A stretch of DNA of 10,462 nt from Gammaproteobacteria bacterium. GTDB lineage: Bacteria > Pseudomonadota > Gammaproteobacteria > Steroidobacterales > GCA-2729495. The stretch covers positions 63,369-73,830 of the forward strand of contig JARRLL010000012.1 in the NCBI GenBank assembly GCA_037387125.1. Direction: 5' to 3'. This document shows positions 17 through 10,462 of the stretch, piece by piece (position 1 is the first letter of the stretch; each line of letters starts with the position of its first letter). Under the pieces are notes generated by a model that saw only the letters and a program-made list of their open reading frames with translations, made no database searches and was not told the DNA's origin. A program made the translations under genes and the position numbers.

Positions 17-1144
17 CTACTGCTTGATGCGCACCAGTTCGTTCAGCACGCCGTCCAGACCACCGAAGACCGAGATGTTGCCAACCTTGTCGGCAACCTT
101 CTCCAGTGCCTCCAGCTCCTTCAGGCGCAGAGCGACCGGGTTGCTCTCCATGACCTTCGCGGTGTTCAGCAACGAACGGGTCGCGTTGGTCTCCTCGCGG
201 CGACGGATCACGTTCGCCTGTGCGGCCTTGTCCGCTTCCACCACCTTTGCCAGGATTTCCTTCATATCACCCGGCAGGATGATGTCCTTTACGCCAATGC
301 CGCGCACCTCGACGCCGATCTCGGCCAGCTTGTCGCGCACGTGGTCGAACACCTCACGATCGACGGCGCCCTTATCTTCCAGCAACACGTCTAAAGTGCG
401 GGTACCCACGGCCGCGCGCAAACCAAACAGGATCTCCGAGCGCAGGAAGTCGAGCGGGAGCTTGACTGCCTTAAAGGCCTGCAATGCGTCTACGATGCGA
501 AAGTTAGCGGTCAGGTTGATGCGAATACCCACCTTATCGCGGGTCATAATCTCCTGACCGGTCACCTCCAGCGCGTTGATACGCAGATCCACAAAGTCGA
601 TATCGACATCGCGCTCGAACTTCCAGAACGCGTGCAGACCCGGCTGCAATGCGCCATTCAGCTCACCATCGACAAACAGCAGACCCACGTGGCCGTCCGG
701 CACCTTGCGCGCGAACACTGCGGCCATGATCATCGCGCCCGGGCGCACCAGGGCCTTCGCTACGCGCGGGGTCAGCTCAAAGTCCTCGGCGATATCCACC
801 TTGTCCACGGTGATGTCGATGACATCCTTCCAGAACAGGGCACGACGATCCGGACCCAGAACCTCACCCACCTGGTCGTTGAAGAAAACCAGGGCCACCT
901 CTGCCGGACCAGTCTTCACAACTTCGAACAACTGGTCGACTTCAGCGCGATGCTCCTTCACCAGGAAATCCTGCAGACGGTGCTGGAACAACGGCAGAGC
1001 CAGGTCGAACAACTCAACGTCGATACGACGCAGCGGGTCGACAAAGCGATGCAAGCCCGGCTTCAGGAAGCCGACAAAGTCACCGCGCTTGAACAGCAAG
1101 CCACGCTCGTGCTTACGCACGATAAAAGTACGAATGAATAACAT
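17..1144 (-). CDS. SPFH/band-7 domain protein (stomatin/slipin-like) with an N-terminal partial duplication of the SPFH fold
   Basis: ORF track 17..1171 minus (stop TAG at 17-19). The translation carries the band-7 core (GIRINLTANFRIVDALQAFKAV, LPGDMKEILAKVVEADKAAQANVIRRREETNA, ALRLKELEALEKVA). The N-terminal 140 aa repeat the first SPFH strand motifs (LLFKRGDFVGFLKPGLHRF vs LLFVDGELNGALQPGLHAF). A perfect SD (GGAGGTG) sits 7 nt upstream of the internal ATG beginning MLFIRT, so the real start is probably ~1144 rather than the TTG at 1171 used by the ORF track. Confidence 0.85.
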   Translation of the reverse strand: MLFIRTFIVRKHERGLLFKRGDFVGFLKPGLHRFVDPLRRIDVELFDLALPLFQHRLQDFLVKEHRAEVDQLFEVVKTGPAEVALVFFNDQVGEVLGPDRRALFWKDVIDITVDKVDIAEDFELTPRVAKALVRPGAMIMAAVFARKVPDGHVGLLFVDGELNGALQPGLHAFWKFERDVDIDFVDLRINALEVTGQEIMTRDKVGIRINLTANFRIVDALQAFKAVKLPLDFLRSEILFGLRAAVGTRTLDVLLEDKGAVDREVFDHVRDKLAEIGVEVRGIGVKDIILPGDMKEILAKVVEADKAAQANVIRRREETNATRSLLNTAKVMESNPVALRLKELEALEKVADKVGNISVFGGLDGVLNELVRIKQ

Positions 1145-1575
1145 TTTGATCACCTCCATTTCTTGCATCAATAACGGTCAAGTTCACGTGCCATGCACGA
1201 ACCAGCGACTGCCAGCTCGTAAAGCGACGCAACGTTTTGACCATGAACCGGGTCACCCCGGTACAACAGACTTCGTTGTTCGGCGCGTTCTTACAGACAT
1301 CCAGAGGAAAAAATTGCGGTGACGGCCACACTGTCGGGCGGGAGCACCGGCCCTGCAACGGCGGGTCCGTGTCGGCCTGGCAATCAGACTTCGCGCGCAC
1401 AGCCTCCGTGCAGGCACGCAACAAACTCTCTTGCACATGGAGAACATGAACTGGACGCAGCAGGGGAACGCTGAACCGGCCCGAACGAGTGCCGAGGCAA
1501 ATCCGTCAGCCGGATCGCTTATGCGACCGCTAAATAGTTTCACCTCCGGCCGCCCCGCGACGAATGAAACCGTCA

Positions 1576-1636
1576 TTCACGGGTGGATTCGAACCACGGG
1601 CTTACGCCCTTCCCATTGGATCAACTTAGCAGGTTG
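1576..1636 (-). pseudogene. tRNA-like remnant (T-arm GGTTCGAATCC consensus plus short hairpins, no recognisable anticodon arm)
   Basis: The reverse complement reads AAGTTGATCCAATGGGAAGGGCGTAAGCCCGTGGTTCGAATCCACCCGTGAATGACGG. It has a canonical T-loop but no D or anticodon arm that I can fold, and it is followed by a 7-bp hairpin (CGAATGAcggtTCATTCG). Confidence 0.3.
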
Positions 1637-1709
1637 ATGGAAACGCAGGAGTCGAACCTGCGACCGACAGATTCATGGTCTGTTGCTCTACCCTCTGAGC
1701 TAGATTCCA
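1637..1709 (-). tRNA. noncanonical tRNA; anticodon loop CCAUGAA (C33; formal anticodon AUG, possibly Met/Ile-like CAU shifted); no encoded CCA (trailer U-CAA)
   Basis: rc = TGGAATC TA GCTC AGAGGGTA GAGC A ACAGA CCATGAA TCTGT CGGTC GCAGG TTCGACT CCTGC GTTTCCA T. The acceptor pairs 6/7, and the D, anticodon and T stems are perfect. Position 33 is C and position 34 is A. Confidence 0.5.
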
Positions 1710-1925
1710 GTGGAGTTGGGTTTTACGAGCCGCTCGACACACACCGTGCGATGGATAGCGTTGGTGCGCCGGCCGGGTATACAGAACCCGCACCGCTGAA
1801 CGTCGTTCTGGCCCCAACCTTGGTTGACAATGCCGGGCATCAGGCACCGGCGTTGCCGTCCAGCCACGCTGACACGTTGCTGGTAAAACGGGACTCTGGA
1901 TGTCTGTCACGGACTACTCGATAAC

Positions 1926-2001
1926 TGGCGCGGCCCGAGGGATTCGAACCCCCATCTGCGACGTACGCACTGTCGTGCTCTTCCACTTAAGCTAGAACCG
2001 C
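1926..2001 (-). tRNA. tRNA, anticodon loop GUGCGUA -> GCG (Arg-like), CCA encoded; 31-39 A.C mismatch, U37
   Basis: rc = GCGGTTC TA GCTT AAGTGGAA GAGC A CGACA GTGCGTA CGTCG CAGAT GGGGG TTCGAAT CCCTC GGGCCGC G CCA. The acceptor has two G-U pairs. Confidence 0.5.
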
Positions 2002-2008
2002 ATAAAAC

Positions 2009-2084
2009 TGGCGCGACCCGAGGGATTTGAACCCCCATCTTCTGCCCTACCACGGCCTTGCTCTGCCAGTTGAGCTAGAGTCGC
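2009..2084 (-). tRNA. tRNA, anticodon loop GUGGUAG -> GGU (Thr-like), CCA encoded; anticodon stem only 3 WC pairs plus tandem A.G/G.A
   Basis: rc = GCGACTC TA GCTC AACTGGCA GAGC A AGGCC GTGGTAG GGCAG AAGAT GGGGG TTCAAAT CCCTC GGGTCGC G CCA. The T-arm and acceptor are nearly identical to the neighbouring tRNA at 1926-2001, suggesting tandem duplication with a diverged anticodon region. Confidence 0.5.
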
Positions 2085-2089
2085 ATTGA

Positions 2090-2160
2090 CAACCCGGGAC
2101 GGATTCGAACCGTCGTCTTCACTTCTGGAAGGTGACGTTCTGCCACTGAACTACCGGGAT
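2090..2160 (-). tRNA. tRNA-Trp (anticodon CCA); no encoded 3' CCA (trailer G-UCAA)
   Basis: rc = ATCCCGG TA GTTC AGTGGCA GAAC G TCACC TTCCAGA AGTGA AGAC GACGG TTCGAAT CCGTC CCGGGTT G. The D and T stems are perfect. The anticodon loop has U33 and CCA. There is a 31-39 C.A mismatch and a 2-71 U.U mismatch. Confidence 0.65.
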
Positions 2161-2177
2161 TCTGTTTCAAGAAATCG

Positions 2178-2261
2178 CATCCCGGGACGGAGTCGAACCG
2201 TGGTCTGCGCGTTCGGAAGTTACTGTTCGCAAGCACTATTCTGCCATTGAACTTTCGGAAC
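2178..2261 (-). pseudogene. 84-nt tRNA-like element related to the adjacent tRNA-Trp (same D-arm and T-arm/acceptor) with a disrupted or expanded anticodon region; pseudogene or unusual class-II-length tRNA
   Basis: rc = GTTCCGA AA GTTC AATGGCA GAAT A GTGCTTGCGAACAGTAAC TTCCGAA CGCGCAGAC CACGG TTCGACT CCGTC CCGGGAT G. The 5' acceptor strand does not pair with the 3' strand. It retains a TTCCGAA motif resembling the Trp anticodon loop TTCCAGA. I could not fold a canonical anticodon arm. Confidence 0.35.
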
Positions 2262-2319
2262 ATGGAAACAGGTAACGCCTGCGGCGTTCGTTACTTGCGT
2301 GTTTAAGTACACGCAAATT

Positions 2320-2394
2320 TGGTGGACCGTGAAGGACTTGAACCTTCATCTCGCCGGGTAAGAGCCGGGTGCTCTGCCATTAAGCTAACGATCC
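2320..2394 (-). tRNA. tRNA-Lys (anticodon CUU), CCA encoded
   Basis: rc = GGATCGT TA GCTT AATGGCA GAGC A CCCGG CTCTTAC CCGGG CGAGAT GAAGG TTCAAGT CCTTC ACGGTCC A CCA. All stems are canonical and U33 and A37 are present. Confidence 0.8.
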
Positions 2395-2400
2395 GTAATA

Positions 2401-2480
2401 TGGTTGAGGTAAACGACGAGAGTCGAACTCGTATCATCCGGGGTCACCTCCCGGGGTCTTGCCGTTAGACCACGTTTACC
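2401..2480 (-). tRNA. tRNA-His (anticodon GUG) with G-1:C73; anticodon loop AGGUGAC has G33; 3' end reads C73-UCAACCA
   Basis: rc = G GTAAACG TG GTCT AACGGCA AGAC C CCGGG AGGTGAC CCCGG ATGAT ACGAG TTCGACT CTCGT CGTTTAC C TCAACCA. The 8-bp acceptor with the extra 5' G is the His identity element. Four extra nucleotides (UCAA) lie between C73 and the CCA. Confidence 0.7.
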
Positions 2481-2482
2481 AT

Positions 2483-2558
2483 TGGTGCCTTGCATGAGAC
2501 TCGAACTCACATCTGTGGAGTGGCGCTCCACTGCTCTACCGCTTTGAACTAACAAGGC
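2483..2558 (-). tRNA. tRNA-Gly-like (anticodon GCC) with C33 instead of U33, CCA encoded
   Basis: rc = GCCTTGT TA GTTC AAAGCGGTA GAGC A GTGGA GCGCCAC TCCAC AGAT GTGAG TTCGAGT CTCAT GCAAGGC A CCA. Confidence 0.6.
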
Positions 2559-2575
2559 ATGTACATCAACGATTA

Positions 2576-2649
2576 TCAGGGCGGCTGGATTCGAACCAGC
2601 GGCTTCACGGATCCGGGCCGCGCGCTCTGCCAGACTGAGCTACACCCTG
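2576..2649 (-). tRNA. tRNA-Pro-like (anticodon CGG) with C33, no encoded CCA
   Basis: rc = CAGGGTG TA GCTC AGTCTGGCA GAGC G CGCGG CCCGGAT CCGTG AAGCC GCTGG TTCGAAT CCAGC CGCCCTG A. The D and T stems are perfect, and the anticodon stem has one G-U pair. Confidence 0.6.
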
Positions 2650-2657
2650 TTTGAATA

Positions 2658-2723
2658 TGGAGGTAATCGGAATCGAACCGATCTGCTCTGGCATGCAAAA
2701 CCGCTGCTTTCCCAGAAACCCCC
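2658..2723 (-). pseudogene. truncated tRNA-like element: acceptor stem plus perfect T-arm (ATCGG TTCGATT CCGAT) but no D-arm and no canonical anticodon arm; no CCA
   Basis: rc = GGGGGTT TC TGGGAAAGCAGCGGTTTTGCATGCCAGAGCAG ATCGG TTCGATT CCGAT TACCTCC A. Only a TCTGG/CCAGA 5-bp stem enclosing 20 nt could be drawn in the middle. Confidence 0.4.
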
Positions 2724-2725
2724 GT

Positions 2726-3005
2726 AAAGAATACGCGCCGCTATCGCGGCTTCTTAATTTGCGAGTACAAATACTCGCTTTCTGCCTCCGGCGGTGCTCT
2801 GCACGCCTTCACTCGCTAGCGCGCGTGAAGAGTTCCGAGCATGAGTGCCGCTATCGCGGCGTCTCAATTTGCGAGTAGAAATACTCGCAACTCTGCGCTT
2901 CACTTGGTGCTCTGCGCGCCTGCAATCGCTAATGCGATCGCAGAGCTCCGAGCATGTGAAACGCCTGCGGCGTTCATTATTTGCGAGTACAAATACTCGC
3001 AAATT
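2726..3005 (-). repeat. 2.5 tandem ~115-bp units, each ending in a small hairpin (GCCGC-TAT-CGCGGC or AACGCC-TGC-GGCGTT) plus a 22-26-bp perfect palindrome ATTTGCGAGTA-NAAA-TACTCGCAAAT
   Basis: Unit boundaries are marked by GAG(T/C)TCCGAGCATG at 2831-2844 and 2944-2957. The palindromes are at 2757-2778, 2866-2890 and 2979-3004, with a degenerate copy at 2295-2316 directly 3' of tRNA-Lys and another at about 6577-6603. The units contain GCAGAGCAC-type D-arm-like remnants, so they may be decayed tRNA genes that kept their 3' hairpin module. Confidence 0.6.
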
Positions 3006-3125
3006 TGGCTCCGGTCGCAGGGCTCGAACCTGCATCTGACCGATTAACAATCGGGAACTCTGAGATATCGAAACTTCGCCTCCTGGTCTTCAACCAGGCG
3101 CTCTGCCGTCTGAGCTACCGATACA
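3006..3125 (-). pseudogene. chimeric tRNA locus: 5' half of a tRNA-Phe (GAA) joined by a 26-nt linker to the 3' two-thirds of a tRNA-Asn (GUU) ending in CCA
   Basis: rc = GTATCGG TA GCTC AGACGGCA GAGC G CCTGG TTGAAGA CCAGG | AGGCGAAGTTTCGATATCTCAGAGTT | CCCGA TTGTTAA TCGGT CAGAT GCAGG TTCGAGC CCTGC GACCGGA G CCA. The 5' Phe acceptor (GTATCGG) is not complementary to the 3' acceptor (GACCGGA). Confidence 0.45.
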
Positions 3126-3276
3126 TTGGGCGGCGTTAACCACCAGCCCAGCGGGCAGCGCGTCGTCGCAAACGCACCTTGGCCTTGGCCTGCACGCCGG
3201 AACGCGCTGCCCGCATCGAGTAATCCGCATTGTTAAAGAACGCAAAAACAGTTCGCTACAACGCGTTCGACCGGGC

Positions 3277-3312
3277 ATAAAAAAACCCCGGTTGAACGAA
3301 ATCCAACCGGGG
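3277..3312 (-). terminator. rho-independent terminator on the minus strand (9-bp stem CCCCGGTTG/CAACCGGGG, 9-nt loop, then T7 on minus)
   Basis: Plus strand reads aaaaaaa-ccccggttg-aacgaaatc-caaccgggg. Confidence 0.6.
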
Positions 3313-3530
3313 CTATGTCCCTGGTCGGAAGGCTTGTTGCAGCAGCCTTCCGACATGTATTCGAAAGGCTAGGTAATCAATCCACTATGCTCGTAATTCA
3401 TTTCTTCAGGCCGAGCGTCGCCGTTGTCGCCGACCGGATTATTGGCCTGGCAAACGTTCGCCGCTTCACTACCTACGTAAGGCACCGGCCTATGTCGGCC
3501 CGCACTCACGCATTGGTTAAGCAAAATATT
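3277..3530 (-). ncRNA. candidate small RNA ending at a double hairpin (11-bp hairpin 3324-3354 followed by the intrinsic terminator 3277-3312); AT-rich promoter-like region upstream at 3520-3650
   Basis: No ORF longer than 10 codons on the minus strand here. The two adjacent strong hairpins plus U-run are typical of sRNA 3' ends. The AT-rich stretch (gcaaaatattttttgcacatatattcataa...) would supply the promoter. Only the 3' end is well defined. Confidence 0.25.
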
Positions 3531-3797
3531 TTTTGCACATATATTCATAAGGGCGCGGACTTTACTCCTCTACTTTTAAGTAGTCAAAGAAATATTTGTT
3601 ATAAGAACGTTCAGGCAAACAATAAAAACGGGCGAGAAAAAAACAGGAATCAAACTGTGCGCTTTCACCTGCGCTGATCGTCGATCACCTATCGGATCGC
3701 GACGGGTCCGCGAGAAGGCCAGAAAGTCTTCACCCTGCAAACGCTGCCGGTCAGCACCAGCTGGCCGGTGGGTGATTAGACGTTTGCTATCCGCACC

Positions 3798-3943
3798 CAA
3801 TGCGGCGGCCGGCTGCGCGTCATCGCCAGCATCGAATCGCCGGCGGTCATCGAGCGGATTCTCAAGCACCTTGGCCGGGAGGCCGTGCCGGTCGATCCTG
3901 CGCATCCGAGCCGGGCACCGCCCCGGTCAGATCGGCTGATCTG
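3798..3943 (+). pseudogene. C-terminal remnant (~48 codons) of an IS91-family transposase gene
   Basis: The frame opens just after an in-frame stop at the left edge of the repeat and ends at TGA 3941-3943. There is no upstream coding continuation. Confidence 0.45.
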
Positions 3944-4188
3944 ATTCTCTCGCCGATGCCCACGCCGCCCGGCCCCCGCGCCGGGAGGTGCGTGTGTTGA
4001 CCGGCGGCTTTGCCGGTTGGCATTTCCGGGTGAAAGGGGAAGATTCACGGACCCAACGACGTCGCCCGGGTGAGGCTCCGCCTGCATCGCGGCGTTCAAC
4101 CTGCCATCAACACCCCGATTGCAACATGCCTCTACCAATTCGAGTGAATCGGCTGCTCAAACATAGGTGGCTTATACTTCCTATTCGC
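3798..4188 (+). mobile_element. copy 1 of a ~390-bp IS91/ISCR-like 3'-end (oriIS-side) remnant: transposase C-terminal tail plus conserved non-coding region ending AACATAGGTGGCTTATACTTCCTATTCGC
   Basis: About 90% identical to 6819-7187, with a 26-bp insertion at about 4046-4071. The frame reads CGGRLRVIASIESPAVIERILKHLGREAVPVDPAHPSRAPPRSDRLI*, a C-terminal motif I recall from IS91-family HUH-Y2 transposases. The terminus (A)AACTTCCTAT(T)C matches the oriIS consensus of IS91/IS801/IS1294/ISCR as I remember it. Confidence 0.55.
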
Positions 4189-6818: not shown

Positions 6819-6966
6819 CCAATGCGGCGGCCGGCTGCGCGTCATCGCCAGCATCGAATCGCCGGCGGTCATTGAGCGGATTCTCAAGCACCTTGGCGGA
6901 GAGGCCGTGCCGGTCGATCCTGCGCATCCGAGCCGGGCACCGCCCCGGTCAGATCGGCTGATCTGA
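6819..6966 (+). pseudogene. C-terminal remnant of an IS91-family transposase gene (copy 2)
   Basis: Same frame as copy 1, with stop TGA at 6964-6966. The frame opens after a TGA within 40 nt upstream. Confidence 0.45.
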
Positions 6967-7187
6967 CTCCCTCGCCGATGCCCGCACCGCCCGGCCCCCG
7001 CGCCGGGACGGGCGCGTGTTGCCCGCCGGCTTTGCCTGTTGGCATTTCCGGGTGAAAGGGGAAGATTCACGGGCCGCCACCTGCATCGCGGCGTTCAACC
7101 TGCCATCAACACCCCGATTGCAACACGCCTCTACCGGTTCGATCGAGTCCGCTGCTCAAACAAAGGCAGCTTAAACTTCCTATTCGC
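6819..7187 (+). mobile_element. copy 2 of the IS91/ISCR-like 3'-end remnant (transposase tail ...CGGRLRVIASIESPAVIERILKHLGGEAVPVDPAHPSRAPPRSDRLI*, oriIS-like end AAACAAAGGCAGCTTAAACTTCCTATTCGC)
   Basis: See copy 1. It sits in the convergent gap between the hydrolase gene (plus) and the outer-membrane protein gene (minus). Confidence 0.55.
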
Positions 7188-8427: not shown

Positions 8428-8584
8428 GCGTATCACTCTGTTGCGTCGCGCGTTGATTCTTCAATACAAACCCATACAGAGTATGCGGCGCATTACCGCA
8501 ACTATCCAGACTGCCCACAAGGCTCGCTGGCCACGGCCCACAAATTCGTCATGATGGGTTTTTTATTTGGCTGCACCAAATACG

Positions 8585-9523
8585 CTAGTGACACTCAGCG
8601 TCGCACTCCGAATCAAAAGCAGAGTCAGTTCCAGCGAACTGGGCTCCGCTGTTTGTTTCGCCGGTCAGGGTAAGCTCTGTGTCGGCGCAGCCGACGCCGG
8701 TGTCCCCGGTCAGGAAATGGAACTTGGCATCCAGGAAACCGTCGTTGTCAAAGTCGGTATTTAATTCAGTGGTCGATGACGGATCGAGGCCGGCACCAGC
8801 AGGCCCGAAACTTAAGGTGGAACCGACAATATTGCCAGCGACCAGGTTGACAGGGTCGCCCGCGCTGGTGGTTGAGGTGAATACGATCACCTCGATGACA
8901 TCATTGAGCCCGCCGGGAGCGGAGGCACTGCCGTCGTGATCCGGATGGACCGCCCGATTAGGCGCTGCCGTGTCGATATCGATCTCAGCGGGCAGTACGC
9001 CCGCCGGCGCCACAACGATATCGTCGAAGAAAAAGCCGGTCAGGCTATTGGTGTGCGCGACCAGAAACACCTCGACGTTGGTGAGGTTGGTCCAGCTACT
9101 GTCAAAATCCACGGTCAGCTCGCCAGGGATAGCGATGCCCTCGAAGTTGCTCGCATAAGTCACTAGCGAGGCCGTCTGATAAATATAGCCCCCGCCGTCA
9201 ATTTTGCCCCGGAACGTGATACCACCGACCGCGTAGACGGGCTGGTTGCCAATCAACCGTATCGACATCTGCTTCAACGTGAACGGATCCGTGTTGGTTT
9301 GGAACATATTGAACGAGTAATAACCGCTCAAGGCCCAGATTTGGTAATCCGGCGTGATGCCTAGCACGGTGGCATCACTGGTGGTAAACCGATAGCCACG
9401 ACTGTCGAATGACGCCGTGGTACCCGTCGAATCCTCGAAATCAATTACGGTATCGGCTGCGAAAGCAGGCGCAGACGCCAGGCAAACGCTGAGCAACCAT
9501 GACCGGTGCTTAAATATTGACAT
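8585..9523 (-). CDS. hypothetical secreted protein (SPI signal peptide MSIFKHRSWLLSVCLASAPAFA|AD), D/T/G-rich, C-terminal Cys cluster CADTE...SECDAECH
   Basis: 312-aa ORF, co-directional with and 150 bp upstream of the OMP gene (probable operon). No family is recognised by eye. Confidence 0.65.
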   Translation of the reverse strand: MSIFKHRSWLLSVCLASAPAFAADTVIDFEDSTGTTASFDSRGYRFTTSDATVLGITPDYQIWALSGYYSFNMFQTNTDPFTLKQMSIRLIGNQPVYAVGGITFRGKIDGGGYIYQTASLVTYASNFEGIAIPGELTVDFDSSWTNLTNVEVFLVAHTNSLTGFFFDDIVVAPAGVLPAEIDIDTAAPNRAVHPDHDGSASAPGGLNDVIEVIVFTSTTSAGDPVNLVAGNIVGSTLSFGPAGAGLDPSSTTELNTDFDNDGFLDAKFHFLTGDTGVGCADTELTLTGETNSGAQFAGTDSAFDSECDAECH

Positions 9524-9532
9524 GACAATCCC

Positions 9533-9737
9533 CCCGCACCGCTCTGGTGCCGCTTAAGGCCGCCGGGACGGGCGCGTGTTGACCGGCGGCTTTCCCGGTT
9601 GGCATTTCCGGGTGAAACGGGAAGGTTCACGGGCATCGCAGCGTTCAACCTGCCATCAAAACCCCGATTTTAACACGCCTCTACCGGTTCGATCGAGTCC
9701 GCTGCTCAAACAAAGGCAGCTTAAACTTCCTATTCGC
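9533..9737 (+). mobile_element. copy 3 (5'-truncated, ~205 bp) of the IS91/ISCR-like element: non-coding part plus oriIS-like end only
   Basis: Aligns to copy 2 from CCCGCACCGC onward and ends ...GCAGCTTAAACTTCCTATTCGC. It begins 10 nt upstream of the secreted-protein start codon (9523) and ends 24 nt before the ZnuA-like stop (9761). Confidence 0.5.
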
Positions 9738-9760
9738 CGCCTAGGCCGGTTGCAGCAGGA

Positions 9761-10462
9761 CTATGGCAGCGACCGATGAAGTCGTTCTACGTTATCGTGC
9801 ATCACGCTGAGGAAGTCGCCCTCTTCCGGAGCGTTCGCGACCGTCCGAAAAGGCACGCTGACGATGCCTGCCTTGGCGAGGCCGATTCGTGTTTCTTCCA
9901 GCGGCTCAGACTCCCAGACCATGATCGTCGCCGGGTGCGTGACGAGTATCTGTTGCAATTCAATCCAGTCAAATGTCGAGGGTGCCTCGTCCGTTTCCCA
10001 GTGCACACTCTCGCCGTTAATACCGTAGCGACTCTCGAGATACTGGTACACGGGATGCGAGAACAGGACAGGCCTACCATCGAGCTGTGCGAATGCATCC
10101 GCAAGGCGCGCATCGAGTTCAGTAAGCTCCCGCTCCAGGTTTGCAAGGTTGTCACGGAACCGCGTTTCGCCCGCTGGTACCAGATCGATAAGTAAGTTGG
10201 CGAGGACCCTGGCCTGCGCAATGGCAATCTGTGGGTCCAGCCAGGTCGTGAAGGCGGTCCGCTGGTGAGAGTGCTCACCCTCCGGGCCGTGCTGATGCTG
10301 GACAGAATCGTCGAGCGGAATGAGTCTGTCCACGACAATAGCTGACGTATCAACAAGGCGACGCCGATCGAGCGAAATCATGTTGAGCCAGGACTCAGCG
10401 CCGGCGCCGTTGAGTAAAATGACGTCGGCCGACTGCAAGAGCTGAACCTGTTCCTCACTCGG
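9761..10462 (-). CDS. znuA: metal (Zn/Mn) ABC transporter substrate-binding protein, ZnuA/TroA family; 5'-partial (N-terminus beyond window)
   Basis: His-rich loop (HQHGPEGEHSHQ), a W-L-D-P motif (TAFTTWLDPQIAIA), and VLFSHPVYQYLESRYGI matching the ZnuA FVFHDAYGYF region. The frame stays open to the window edge. Confidence 0.8.
   Translation of the reverse strand, partial: PSEEQVQLLQSADVILLNGAGAESWLNMISLDRRRLVDTSAIVVDRLIPLDDSVQHQHGPEGEHSHQRTAFTTWLDPQIAIAQARVLANLLIDLVPAGETRFRDNLANLERELTELDARLADAFAQLDGRPVLFSHPVYQYLESRYGINGESVHWETDEAPSTFDWIELQQILVTHPATIMVWESEPLEETRIGLAKAGIVSVPFRTVANAPEEGDFLSVMHDNVERLHRSLP

Follow-up and report, generated by a model that had tools for sequence, protein, structure and literature searches.

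The tRNA cluster on the minus strand of the window (the whole stretch of DNA analyzed here, 10,462 nucleotides) makes up the leading half of a bacterial unit that is widespread, has hardly been studied, and usually adjoins the gene for the RNA ligase RtcB. The unit is arranged on one strand as a leader, a tRNA array, a structured RNA of ~110 nt (here called UE), the Band-7-associated tRNA-like RNA (b7a-tRNA), and a gene for a soluble Band-7/SPFH protein. The window probably holds the tRNA-array half of this conserved proteobacterial unit, a partly eroded set of stress-response spare tRNAs tied to RNA repair. The first-pass annotation had recognized a real, dense array but not the conserved Band-7/b7a-tRNA/UE unit linked to RtcB.

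The Band-7 gene and its two small RNAs

The Band-7/SPFH gene (slipin family; positions 17 to 1171, minus strand) is an intact open reading frame of 383 to 384 amino acids and supplies the unit with its protein partner. The N-terminal ~150 amino acids gave no Pfam match, and no long hydrophobic stretch was seen when the protein sequence was read by eye. Our genome set comprised 82 Band-7-homologue loci, 80 from a genome scan (47 to 69% amino acid identity) plus L087 and L088. A tRNA-like gene lay 160 to 670 nt upstream on the same strand in 70 of the 82 loci; ~30 of them carried arrays of 5 to 18 tRNAs, 30 carried RtcB, 21 an HNH endonuclease, and 13 RtcR, and Pfam confirmed the linked protein families. 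As an independent test, metagenomes were scanned with the UE motif alone, which yielded 110 loci. A tRNA-like gene followed UE by ≤60 nt in 100 of the 104 metagenome loci with downstream room, and Band-7 followed UE in 55 of the 56 with enough room. The order in ~190 related loci is array, UE, b7a-tRNA, Band-7, often with another array, an HNH endonuclease, and RtcB beyond it; loci of Pseudomonas and enterobacteria pair the unit with RtcR, RtcB, the nucleotidyltransferase RlaP, and RtcA.

The b7a-tRNA (1636 to 1709, minus strand; 59.1 bits) lies 465 nt upstream of the Band-7/SPFH gene and folds into a full cloverleaf without an encoded CCA. RNAs of this kind were predicted beside Band-7 and RtcB by Burroughs and Aravind in 2016, as cited in bioRxiv 10.1101/312249, which describes them as never experimentally validated. 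Among 149 distinct sequences, entropy was 1.96, 1.82, and 1.50 bits at positions 34, 35, and 36 and ~0 in the T-loop, and anticodon loops of relatives were 6 to 8 nt long. Hypervariability is confined to the anticodon loop, and b7a-tRNA clearly has no conserved anticodon. A CCA was encoded in 11 to 36% of b7a-tRNAs versus 90 to 95% of array tRNAs. ARAGORN labeled the window's b7a-tRNA "His(AUG)," which for one member bears out the earlier expectation that standard finders would mis-score some of these genes.

UE (1711 to 1819, minus strand) is conserved, shows covariation, and occurs once per locus and always immediately 5′ of b7a-tRNA. Inside the long closing stem of UE (GGUUGGG/CCCAACU, then ACGA/UCGU and CGUUC/GAGCG) sit two hairpins, one T-arm-like (CGGG-loop-CCCG) and one formed by GCGCAC...GUGUGU, and the 3′ end of UE is CCA. 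Ninety-seven percent of cells in the UE alignment were paired and 9 of 20 pairs showed compensatory change; the observed values were reached by 0 of 500 shuffles. The outer stem had a mean energy of −17.5 kcal/mol with its own partner, compared to −12.8 kcal/mol with partners from other loci. UE matched no Rfam family. The Rfam YrlA model did not match UE either: its top hit in the region, at 25 bits where the gathering score is 69, lay over array tRNAs.

At the other end of the array, a conserved leader (3200 to 3333, minus strand) is a candidate promoter or operator region. Within it lie a terminator-like hairpin of 14 pairs (3314 to 3284), with a T run after it, and a block of 23 nt (3242 to 3220) that is identical in L007 and L008. 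The leader is ~77% identical over ~130 nt to the array-upstream stretches of six other loci (L163, L138, L183, L180, L089, and L186). No clear sigma-70 match was found in 3200 to 3333.

The tRNA genes of the array

ARAGORN at default settings called 8 tRNA genes in the 10.5-kb window, all on the minus strand between 1636 and 2649, and no further tRNA gene in the rest of it. Rfam RF00005 recovered these 8 plus 3064 to 3124, with scores of 34.5 to 61.8 bits (E values of 2e-12 to 6e-5). The dense minus-strand array with noncanonical members described from the letters alone is thus real, with 8 or 9 tRNAs in 1636 to 3124, and both programs placed the anticodon loops where that description had placed them. 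All features below are on the minus strand and are given in order from the leader.

The leader-proximal element (3006 to 3124) consists of the 5′ 62 nt of tRNA-Phe(GAA) (3063 to 3124; matched by Rfam at 34.5 bits as a tRNA without a T-arm) and the 3′ 57 nt of tRNA-Asn(GUU) (3006 to 3062; anticodon arm, T-arm, acceptor 3′ strand, G73, and CCA). It had been read as a chimera; it is the product of a 120-bp deletion that joined Phe nucleotides 1 to 62 to Asn nucleotides 19 to 75. The loci L001 and L002 have intact Phe-GAA (L001 7321 to 7395), Ile-GAU, and Asn-GUU genes, the extra 120 bp being L001 7214 to 7333. Missing from the window's contig, which comes from a JGI metagenome, are tRNA-Ile(GAU) and the terminal parts of Phe and Asn; sister contigs from other samples, 99.9% identical, carry 11 tRNAs. 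Repeat comparison resolved the following stretch (2650 to 3005) into three tandem spacer units of ~110 to 130 nt, seen in the window's lineage only, each opening with the hairpin TTGCGAGTAnnnnTACTCGCAA and continuing with another G+C hairpin. A T-arm and CCA remnant (2659 to 2747; ARAGORN score of 93.4 at a lowered threshold) closes the last of the three.

tRNA-Pro(CGG) (2576 to 2649; 57 bits) has C1-G72 and A73 without an encoded CCA and is 87% identical to the Pro-CGG genes of L007 and L008. It is followed by tRNA-Gly(GCC) (2483 to 2558; 47.5 bits), with an encoded CCA, and by tRNA-His(GUG) (2406 to 2480; 48 bits), with an 8-bp acceptor stem, G-1:C73, and no CCA. tRNA-Lys(CUU) (2320 to 2394; 61.8 bits) has U33, A73, an encoded CCA, and a C27.C43 mismatch and is 84% identical to its L007 and L008 counterparts. 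A hairpin-pair spacer (2274 to 2322) resembling the one after Asn precedes a degenerate tRNA-Trp copy (2177 to 2261; ARAGORN score of 83.5 at a lowered threshold), which is 76% identical to Trp over 51 nt; its broken anticodon arm and its relation to Trp had been noted at first reading. tRNA-Trp(CCA) itself (2090 to 2160; 56.7 bits) is near-canonical, with A1-U72 and G73, and shows both the C31.A39 mismatch and the missing CCA reported for it. tRNA-Thr(GGU) (2009 to 2084; 44.3 bits) is the member said to have a 3-bp anticodon stem, and we find three Watson-Crick pairs plus tandem A.G/G.A. The adjoining tRNA-Arg(GCG) (1926 to 2001; 41.5 bits; loop GUGCGUA, with U33 but U37, and an A31.C39 mismatch) is its paralogue. 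The two are 78% identical over 81 nt and differ in the anticodon arm; the proposed in-array duplication and anticodon-arm divergence holds for this pair and also for Trp and its degenerate copy.

Four of the eight ARAGORN genes (AUG-loop b7a-tRNA, Trp, His, and Pro) lack an encoded CCA, the number first counted. The window genes retain what we take to be identity elements: His has G-1:C73, Pro has C1-G72 with A73, Trp has A1-U72 with G73, and Lys has A73. Downstream of b7a-tRNA, a supposed member without a D-arm (1576 to 1625) does contain a T-arm-like repeat, 88% identical to the Pro T-arm, but as a tRNA it is weakly supported. Like 2659 to 2747, it was called by ARAGORN only after the thresholds were lowered, a setting prone to false positives, and both remnants are recognized mainly by their T-arm-like repeats.

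Position 33 and erosion of the window's copy

Both ARAGORN and Rfam reproduced the non-U33 members of the first-pass annotation, with C33 in the AUG-loop b7a-tRNA (CCAUGAA), Gly-GCC (GCGCCAC), and Pro-CGG (CCCGGAU) and G33 in His-GUG (AGGUGAC). In none of these four loops is either of the first two positions a U, so no alternative register gives U33. By the general rule that U33 is nearly invariant in tRNAs, C33 is probably specific to the arrays. Non-U33 loops occurred in 33 of 351 array tRNAs in the genome set and 68 of 544 in the metagenome set and were concentrated in His-GUG (10/24 and 22/39, respectively), Gly-GCC (5/8 and 9/22), and Pro-CGG (2/3 and 5/8; the L007 and L008 genes likewise have C33). 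The window shares its Gly loop with L020, L034, and L040, and 15 of 18 pairs in the His family show compensatory changes. Recurrence of the unusual loops in related genomes shows that they are not artifacts of folding; non-U33 recurs by isoacceptor, in His, Gly-GCC, and Pro-CGG, in distantly related arrays that keep the cloverleaf.

Some decay of the window's copy is real, as seen in the deletion variant, in four or five remnants (among them 2177 to 2261, 2659 to 2747, and ~1576 to 1625), and in the loss of neighbor genes. Degradation seems further advanced in this copy than in relatives: stem mismatches per tRNA are 2.0 versus 1.24, CCA is encoded in 7 of 10 tRNAs versus 90%, and 3 of 10 array tRNAs are non-U33 versus ~10%. 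An IS91 transposase and repeats flank it. Neither the window nor L001 (a 14.8-kb locus on a 29-kb sister contig) contains an RtcB, HNH, regulator, or RlaP gene, so that for this copy the functional link to repair is one of homology only. Poor expression has been reported for arrays in other bacteria (PMC8421152). Even so, it is unlikely that the cluster is the defunct remainder of an array gained by horizontal transfer, with oddities that are all neutral degradation. Such pseudogene decay accounts for the remnants but not for the loops, which are isoacceptor specific, common to intact arrays in distant genomes, and, for Gly, identical in four loci. Compensatory changes keep the stems, the presumed identity elements fit the anticodons, and the Band-7 reading frame, b7a-tRNA, and UE are intact and 80 to 88% identical to those of relatives.

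Proposed function and comparison with known systems

In the spare-tRNA reading that we favor, the array would encode supernumerary tRNAs switched on upon translation damage, as in the Anabaena trn array, and these would replenish or protect the tRNA pool during religation of cut RNAs by RtcB. U33-to-C/G changes could make some spare tRNAs poor substrates for anticodon-loop nucleases; we infer such resistance by analogy with phage tRNAs, for which nuclease evasion through loop changes has been proposed (PMC10264068). On the model of Ro60 and Y RNAs, the Band-7 protein may use the b7a-tRNA and UE as RNA cofactors or baits.

It is very improbable that the whole array produces only non-translational RNAs, either decoys or sponges for tRNA-cutting toxins or ligands of a damage sensor. 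U33 matters for the anticodon U-turn, so C33 and G33 species may decode poorly, and b7a-tRNA clearly keeps no anticodon; against this, the window retains its presumed identity elements, and ~90% of the relatives' array tRNAs have fully canonical loops and an encoded CCA, with a near-complete anticodon repertoire. A sponge role has been raised for Anabaena array tRNAs, but 23 of 26 of them are aminoacylated in vivo (PMC8421152).

HNH endonucleases accompany related arrays, and tRNA arrays are known in phages and an Acidithiobacillus ICE (PMC4758250, PMC6409571), but a phage- or integrative-element-borne cluster (serving codon usage or defense escape) now left as a prophage or ICE remnant is highly doubtful: the window had no DNA match in phage or plasmid collections, the Band-7 protein had none in the phage collection, the UE motif matched no viral contig, no integrase, capsid, or conjugation gene was seen in the window, base composition does not shift at the array in the way suggested as a sign of mobile origin, and relatives are chromosomal and adjoin the cellular repair genes RtcB/RtcR. 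The L001 locus does adjoin the IS91 transposase and lies a few kilobases from ssrA/smpB. That site is a classic one for island insertion.

The spare-tRNA unit resembles the Band-7/b7a-tRNA RNA-repair systems of Burroughs and Aravind (2016), as described in bioRxiv 10.1101/312249, and the locus of PaFlo8, a Pseudomonas aeruginosa SPFH protein that sits within the rtc locus (PMC13086221). The Band-7 protein is of the same subfamily, and a tRNA-like gene lies immediately upstream of it on the same strand. RtcB, RtcR, RlaP, and RtcA are present in homologous loci, whereas the window's copy has no nearby RtcB and carries a full tRNA array and a second structured RNA ahead of its b7a-tRNA.

In Anabaena, the TrcR regulon comprises the trn array, rtcB, the HNH gene all8564, and the slipin gene alr0740 (PMC10272220), and the array is induced by translational stress (PMC8421152). 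Both systems have co-oriented, tightly spaced supernumerary tRNA genes, including pseudogenes, and both associate HNH endonuclease, RtcB, and slipin, by co-regulation in Anabaena, where slipin and rtcB lie elsewhere in the genome, and by physical linkage in the window's relatives. They differ in phylum, in size (8 to 11 genes in the window's lineage versus 26 to 43 in Anabaena-type arrays), and in regulator (an HTH protein or RtcR in the relatives versus the RHH protein TrcR). The arrays of Acidithiobacillus ICEs and of Firmicutes or Mycobacterium (PMC4758250, PMC5966550) are likewise dense in tRNA genes, contain noncanonical or tRNA-like members, and appear to have spread horizontally; the window falls below their 20-gene threshold and shows no ICE or phage backbone, and the defining neighbors of the present unit are Band-7, b7a-tRNA, and RtcB. 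Recurrent C33/G33 was not found by a term search of the tRNA-array literature compared. Phage tRNAs proposed to evade anticodon nucleases through altered loops (PMC10264068), and T5 tRNA-Lys versus PARIS (PMC11464382), are likewise supernumerary, with off-norm anticodon loops in an RNA-damage setting; the window's genes are chromosomal and changed at position 33, and their nuclease resistance is putative.

Finally, the Salmonella rsr-yrlBA-rtcBA operon of Ro60 and Y RNA/YrlA (bioRxiv 10.1101/312249) also places two small structured RNAs, one tRNA-like, between a scaffold-protein gene and RtcB. UE resembles a Y RNA in its long closing stem bearing a structured module; it differs from YrlA in ending in an acceptor-like stem with CCA, and its protein is Band-7 rather than Ro60.

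tRNA genes and anticodon loops of the window

ARAGORN at default settings called 8 tRNA genes in the 10.5 kb, all of them minus-strand and confined to 1636-2649. Rfam RF00005 gave nine matches, ARAGORN's eight plus 3064-3124, with scores of 34.5 to 61.8 bits that exceed its gathering score of 29 bits. Together, these calls establish the minus-strand tRNA cluster described in the first-pass annotation. Two members, at ~1576-1625 and 2659-2747, were seen only at lowered ARAGORN thresholds, where false positives are frequent, and are the weakest of the cluster.

ARAGORN structures and Infernal alignments placed four loops exactly as they had been read by hand: CCAUGAA at 1636-1709, GCGCCAC in Gly-GCC, CCCGGAU in Pro-CGG, and AGGUGAC in His-GUG, with C33 in the first three and G33 in His. 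The ARAGORN run recovered U33 in none of them, and since positions 1 and 2 of these loops hold no U, a shift of register cannot give it back. A canonical elongator loop (7 nt, U33, and a purine at 37) is present in Lys, Trp, and Thr but not in these four genes or in Arg-GCG, which has U37 and an A31.C39 mismatch that had escaped earlier notice. Further irregularities reported before were also found here: the Thr-GGU anticodon stem consists of three Watson-Crick pairs plus A.G/G.A, Trp has C31.A39 and no encoded CCA, CCA is absent from four of the eight genes, and the element at 2177-2261 is a degenerate Trp copy. Arg-GCG and Thr-GGU, proposed to be duplicates, are 78% identical over 81 nt including flanks and differ chiefly in the anticodon arm. 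Read from the sequence against established identity rules, the identity elements are retained (His G-1:C73, Pro C1-G72/A73, Trp G73, and Lys A73) and agree with the anticodons of the window genes.

One protein encoded in the window also occurs on JGI metagenome contigs from several samples. Two sister contigs, L002 and L001 (the latter taken from a contig of 29 kb), match the window at 99.9% identity and carry 120 additional bases at 3062/3063 (L001 7214-7333), whose absence costs the window a tRNA-Ile plus the ends of Phe and Asn. With these bases, ARAGORN called intact Asn-GUU, Ile-GAU, and Phe-GAA in L001, each with U33, a canonical elongator loop, and CCA. The first-pass annotation had described an Asn-GUU surviving as the 3′ part of a chimera. 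Only the 3′ Asn part is indeed present in the window, but because the L001 and L002 bases yield three intact genes, we reinterpret the chimera as a deletion product in which Phe nt 1-62 is joined to Asn nt 19-75. A search for microhomology turned up an 8-nt repeat, TTCCCGAT, close to each breakpoint; being offset by ~5 nt from the junction, it does not account for the deletion. The 120-bp difference between the contigs reflects either variation among strains or a difference in assembly.

With 8 genes in the window and 11 in L001 (~5 to 7 per kb), the cluster reaches the density of the tRNA array unit of Tran et al. 2016, defined as ≥20 tRNA genes at ≥2 per kb (PMC4758250), but has too few genes in either contig. 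It has the layout of an L-array as described by Santamaria-Gomez et al. 2021, with co-oriented minus-strand genes, spacers of 2 to 360 nt that are short enough for co-transcription, and a non-periodic order. Gene order is partly common to the arrays of two related loci, L007 and L034 (Phe-Asn ... Pro-His-Lys). Between Asn and Pro, tandem spacer units of ~110 nt (2650-3005, minus strand) each contain a perfect 9- to 11-bp hairpin, TTGCGAGTA-loop-TACTCGCAA, and further G+C hairpins, and a similar hairpin pair follows Lys at 2274-2322 (minus strand). The spacer hairpin motif TTGCGNGTANNNNTACNCGCAA was found only in L001 and L002 and is thus lineage specific. Upstream of the array, a leader of ~130 nt (3200-3333, minus strand) that is ~77% conserved in many related loci contains a strong terminator-like hairpin (3314-3284) and a 23-nt block identical in L007 and L008. 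The leader probably holds the end of a lost upstream regulator gene and the array promoter or operator; upstream of the array, a search yielded no promoter with a sigma-70 consensus, and reading the sequence showed no sigma-54 consensus. A repeat family of up to ~390 bp, which may be a small mobile element, occurs in three copies (3797-4188, 6819-7187, and 9561-9738) at ~88% identity, one of them only partial; one copy sits where related loci carry an HTH regulator gene.

A Band-7 gene with two small RNAs upstream

Adjoining the array, the minus-strand gene at 17-1171 encodes a Band-7/SPFH protein (Band_7 Pfam E value of 2.5e-30). A scan of 185,579 species genomes gave 80 loci with homologues at 47 to 69% identity, in Woeseiaceae, Granulosicoccaceae, Azotimanducaceae, Thiotrichaceae, Burkholderiales, and Pseudomonas; two loci from a plasmid collection, L087 and L088, completed a genome set of 82. 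A tRNA or tRNA-like gene lies 160 to 670 nt upstream of Band-7 on the same strand in 70 of the 82 loci, and the window shares this arrangement, its tRNA-like gene lying 465 nt upstream. This gene is the last member of an array of 5 to 18 tRNAs in ~30 of the 82 loci, and a second array often starts ~50 nt past the Band-7 stop codon.

Neighboring ORFs were clustered, and representatives were scanned against Pfam. RtcB was found in 30 of the 82 loci, an HNH endonuclease in 21, RtcR in 13, the RlaP nucleotidyltransferase in 13, and RtcA in 7, and 11 loci have a small HTH protein upstream of their arrays. A Citrobacter record shows rtcR divergent from a "slipin family protein" and a nucleotidyltransferase. 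In the 14.8 kb of L001, tblastn found no RtcB, RtcR, RlaP, or RtcA, leaving no RNA ligase gene adjacent there, and the HNH and regulator genes are also absent. A linked HNH endonuclease is among the traits given for L-arrays, as are induction by translational stress and a supernumerary, horizontally acquired gene set. Among the compared locus sets, no relative was closer than L007 (~75% DNA identity in Band-7). In the enterobacterial loci L087 and L088, which carry slipin and RlaP (with RtcR in L088 only), neither ARAGORN nor Rfam detected a tRNA-like gene; either the upstream element is not universal, then, or it has diverged too far in these loci. A Nostoc flagelliforme plasmid match (71% over 80 amino acids) proved to be an isolated Band-7 fragment with no tRNAs nearby and was set aside. 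No long hydrophobic segment was seen on reading the Band-7 protein, which may therefore be soluble, unlike most SPFH proteins. By reading, its N-terminal ~150 amino acids resemble a partial duplicate of the first SPFH-domain strands (IVRKHERGLLFKRGDFVGFLKPGLHRF versus KVPDGHVGLLFVDGELNGALQPGLHAF). A conserved protein of ~313 amino acids, for which Pfam gave no match, is an uncharacterized member of the unit; it is found alongside HNH and RtcB in 8 loci, including L014, L020, L025 (11952-12893), L027, L031, L039, and L047.

The supposed spacer between Arg-GCG and the tRNA-like gene (1711-1819, minus strand) is a conserved RNA of about 110 nt, 75 to 88% identical to the sequence directly 5′ of that gene in over 40 loci. 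RNAalifold and the folding of single sequences gave the same structure, in which two hairpins, a T-arm-like CGGG-loop-CCCG and GCGCAC...GUGUGU, are enclosed by a long closing stem. Over 20 core pairs, 97.1% of cells are paired, with compensatory changes at 9 pairs; none of 500 shuffles reached the observed values, and slid controls were 24 to 50% paired. The sequence of the outer stem varies by locus, and each strand pairs better with its own partner than with those of other loci (mean of -17.5 versus -12.8 kcal/mol). By eye, about two-thirds of 34 aligned copies have an N-CCA end after an acceptor-like 7-bp stem. A model (HMM) of the core found one copy per locus, at a constant position, in 46 of the 82 loci. 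A metagenome scan with the 110-nt RNA motif alone returned 110 loci; where the contig left room, a tRNA-like gene followed within 60 nt in 100 of 104 and Band-7 lay downstream in 55 of 56. The motif had no match in viral contigs, and no Rfam 15 family matched the RNA. YrlA (RF02553, gathering score of 69 bits) gave no match over 1711-1819 at E values up to 10, and no Ro60 (rsr) gene was found among the neighbors, so that the element does not qualify as a Y RNA or YrlA. With clear covariation and a fixed genomic partner, the 110-nt RNA is a candidate for a new RNA family, linked to Band-7 and the tRNA-like gene. It is absent from the Pseudomonas and betaproteobacterial loci, in which two tandem tRNA-like genes upstream of Band-7 replace it and its neighbor (L053, L056, L057, L060, L061, L064, L065, L072, L074 to L076, L079, L081, L083, and L084). 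These lie at ~9440-9790 in full-length loci, at 165-312 in L053, and at 1380-1526 in L057, and the first of the two often has a 6-nt loop.

The AUG-loop tRNA of the first-pass annotation (1636-1709) is the window's b7a-tRNA, the Band-7-associated tRNA-like RNA: it sits at the b7a position and most closely resembles the b7a elements found at other loci (82 to 83% identity), whatever their "anticodon." It is not a one-base-shifted Met/Ile CAU tRNA, as a 5-bp stem fixes the 7-nt loop and the loops of relatives are unrelated. In a comparison of 149 distinct b7a sequences, the body proved conserved and the T-loop nearly invariant, while entropy at positions 34 to 36 is 1.96, 1.82, and 1.50 bits and anticodon loops have 6, 7, or 8 nt. 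CCA is encoded by 11 to 36% of b7a elements versus 90 to 95% of array tRNAs. Given the hypervariable loop and rare CCA across the set, C33 and the missing CCA are family traits and not defects of a tRNA-His. The b7a-tRNA is thus shaped like a tRNA but has no conserved anticodon, and its loop may be under diversifying pressure. Pipeline labels such as "tRNA-His(AUG)," "tRNA-Pro," and "tRNA-Met" assign it decoding functions that are probably absent. In L176, the b7a-tRNA just after the 110-nt RNA (start at 8503) has the "anticodon" UUA, matching the stop codon UAA; annotation could mistake this element, and b7a-tRNAs with 8-nt loops, for suppressor or frameshift tRNAs.

Taken together, tRNA arrays and Band-7/b7a-tRNA/RtcB parts are physically joined in roughly 190 loci from marine and soil proteobacteria, and the architecture of this unit is conserved.

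Origin of the position-33 variants and of the array

In related arrays, 33 of 351 tRNAs in the genome set and 68 of 544 in the metagenome set lack U33, a frequency far above expectation from established tRNA biology. The variants fall in His-GUG (10/24 in the genome set and 22/39 in the metagenome set), Gly-GCC (5/8 and 9/22), Pro-CGG (2/3 and 5/8), Gln-CUG (0/7 and 8/14), and Glu-UUC (4/12 and 2/7), while most other isoacceptors have zero or one. The window's three deviating array tRNAs (His, Gly, and Pro) all belong to these isoacceptors. The window shares its Gly loop GCGCCAC unchanged with L020, L034, and L040, and Pro-CGG of L007 and L008 likewise has C33. In the His family, compensatory changes at 15 of 18 pairs and C73-CCA ends accompany a cloverleaf that is kept. 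Shared isoacceptor-specific loops, the preserved His cloverleaf, and matching identity elements argue that the non-U33 loops are old and inherited, tolerated or favored, and not recent damage.

Pseudogene decay, which the first-pass annotation had named as the alternative, would make the odd loops products of erosion. Pure decay fits the remnants but leaves the shared, isoacceptor-specific loops unexplained. The window copy is more worn than its relatives, with 2.0 versus 1.24 stem mismatches per tRNA, CCA encoded by 7 of 10 array tRNAs versus 90%, U37 in Arg, remnants, the deletion, and the loss of RtcB, HNH, and regulator genes seen in L001.

An origin of the array from a phage or ICE fares less well. 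Past mobility is conceivable given the ssrA/IS91 neighborhood and the HNH gene of relatives, but similarity searches and gene content lend no support: the whole window had no megablast match in phage and plasmid collections, the Band-7 protein had no tblastn match in phages, and the window genes (Band-7, lipoprotein, hydrolase, porin, and metal-binding protein) include no phage or conjugative backbone. The patchy spread across Gamma- and Betaproteobacteria is only suggestive of horizontal acquisition. In L001, smpB, ssrA (tmRNA), and an IS91-family transposase lie a few kb past the Band-7 gene. At 1728-2480 and 2295-3248, ssrA (tag ANDDNYALAA) and a second, overlapping tmRNA-like call are followed by the transposase (Y2_Tnp), and this stretch is 1 to 2 kb from Band-7. 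It could mark the insertion of an island at ssrA, with displacement of the part of the unit that holds RtcB and HNH. That all array members serve only as decoys is unlikely, because most relatives are canonical and CCA-tailed.

Possible functions and known systems

By analogy with Anabaena and from the RtcB linkage, the array would supply spare tRNAs under translational damage. C33 or G33 may blunt nucleases that cut the anticodon loop, as in a comparable proposal for phage tRNAs (PMC10264068), and the variants would then be nuclease-resistant spares. By analogy with Ro60 and Y RNA, b7a-tRNA and the 110-nt RNA may partner the Band-7 protein, acting as its cofactors or as baits. Cleavage by HEPN anticodon nucleases, PrrC among them, falls immediately 3′ of U33, and the enzyme that inserts queuine requires U33-G34-U35; through either process, position 33 of tRNA-His could come under selection.

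More speculatively, and with considerable doubt on our part, the unit might be a chromosomal countermeasure against tRNA-cutting toxins, composed of a hardened C33/G33 array, a diversifying b7a bait, and a Y-RNA-like RNA with a soluble Band-7 cage. The b7a-tRNA loop would diversify in an arms race with nuclease specificities, the 110-nt RNA would present an acceptor stem and CCA at its end, and both would join the Band-7 cage and sense damage or pass cut RNAs to RtcB. The Band-7 protein matched no PADLOC defense family at E values up to 0.01. These three RNA parts are not known to have been described together.

Singly, tRNA gene arrays, b7a-tRNA, and an rtc-linked SPFH protein are already known or predicted. 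Band-7/b7a-tRNA/RtcB repair systems are given as predicted in 2016 and b7a-tRNA as unvalidated as of 2018 (bioRxiv 10.1101/312249). As far as checked, four findings are new: array, b7a-tRNA, and SPFH gene are physically fused in many proteobacteria, position-33 variants recur, the b7a loop is hypervariable by measurement, and a structured RNA lies at 1711-1819. Part of this may be contained in the 2016 prediction. PaFlo8 of P. aeruginosa is an SPFH protein within an rtc locus (PMC13086221). In Anabaena, the TrcR repressor controls a 26-gene trn array, rtcB, the HNH gene all8564, and the slipin gene alr0740 (PMC10272220); translational stress induces the array, and 23 of its tRNAs are charged (PMC8421152). 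The proteobacterial loci hold the same parts as this regulon, but side by side, and so join two lines of research, that on long tRNA arrays, stress induced in one cyanobacterium, and that on the Band-7/b7a-tRNA/RtcB systems predicted in 2016.
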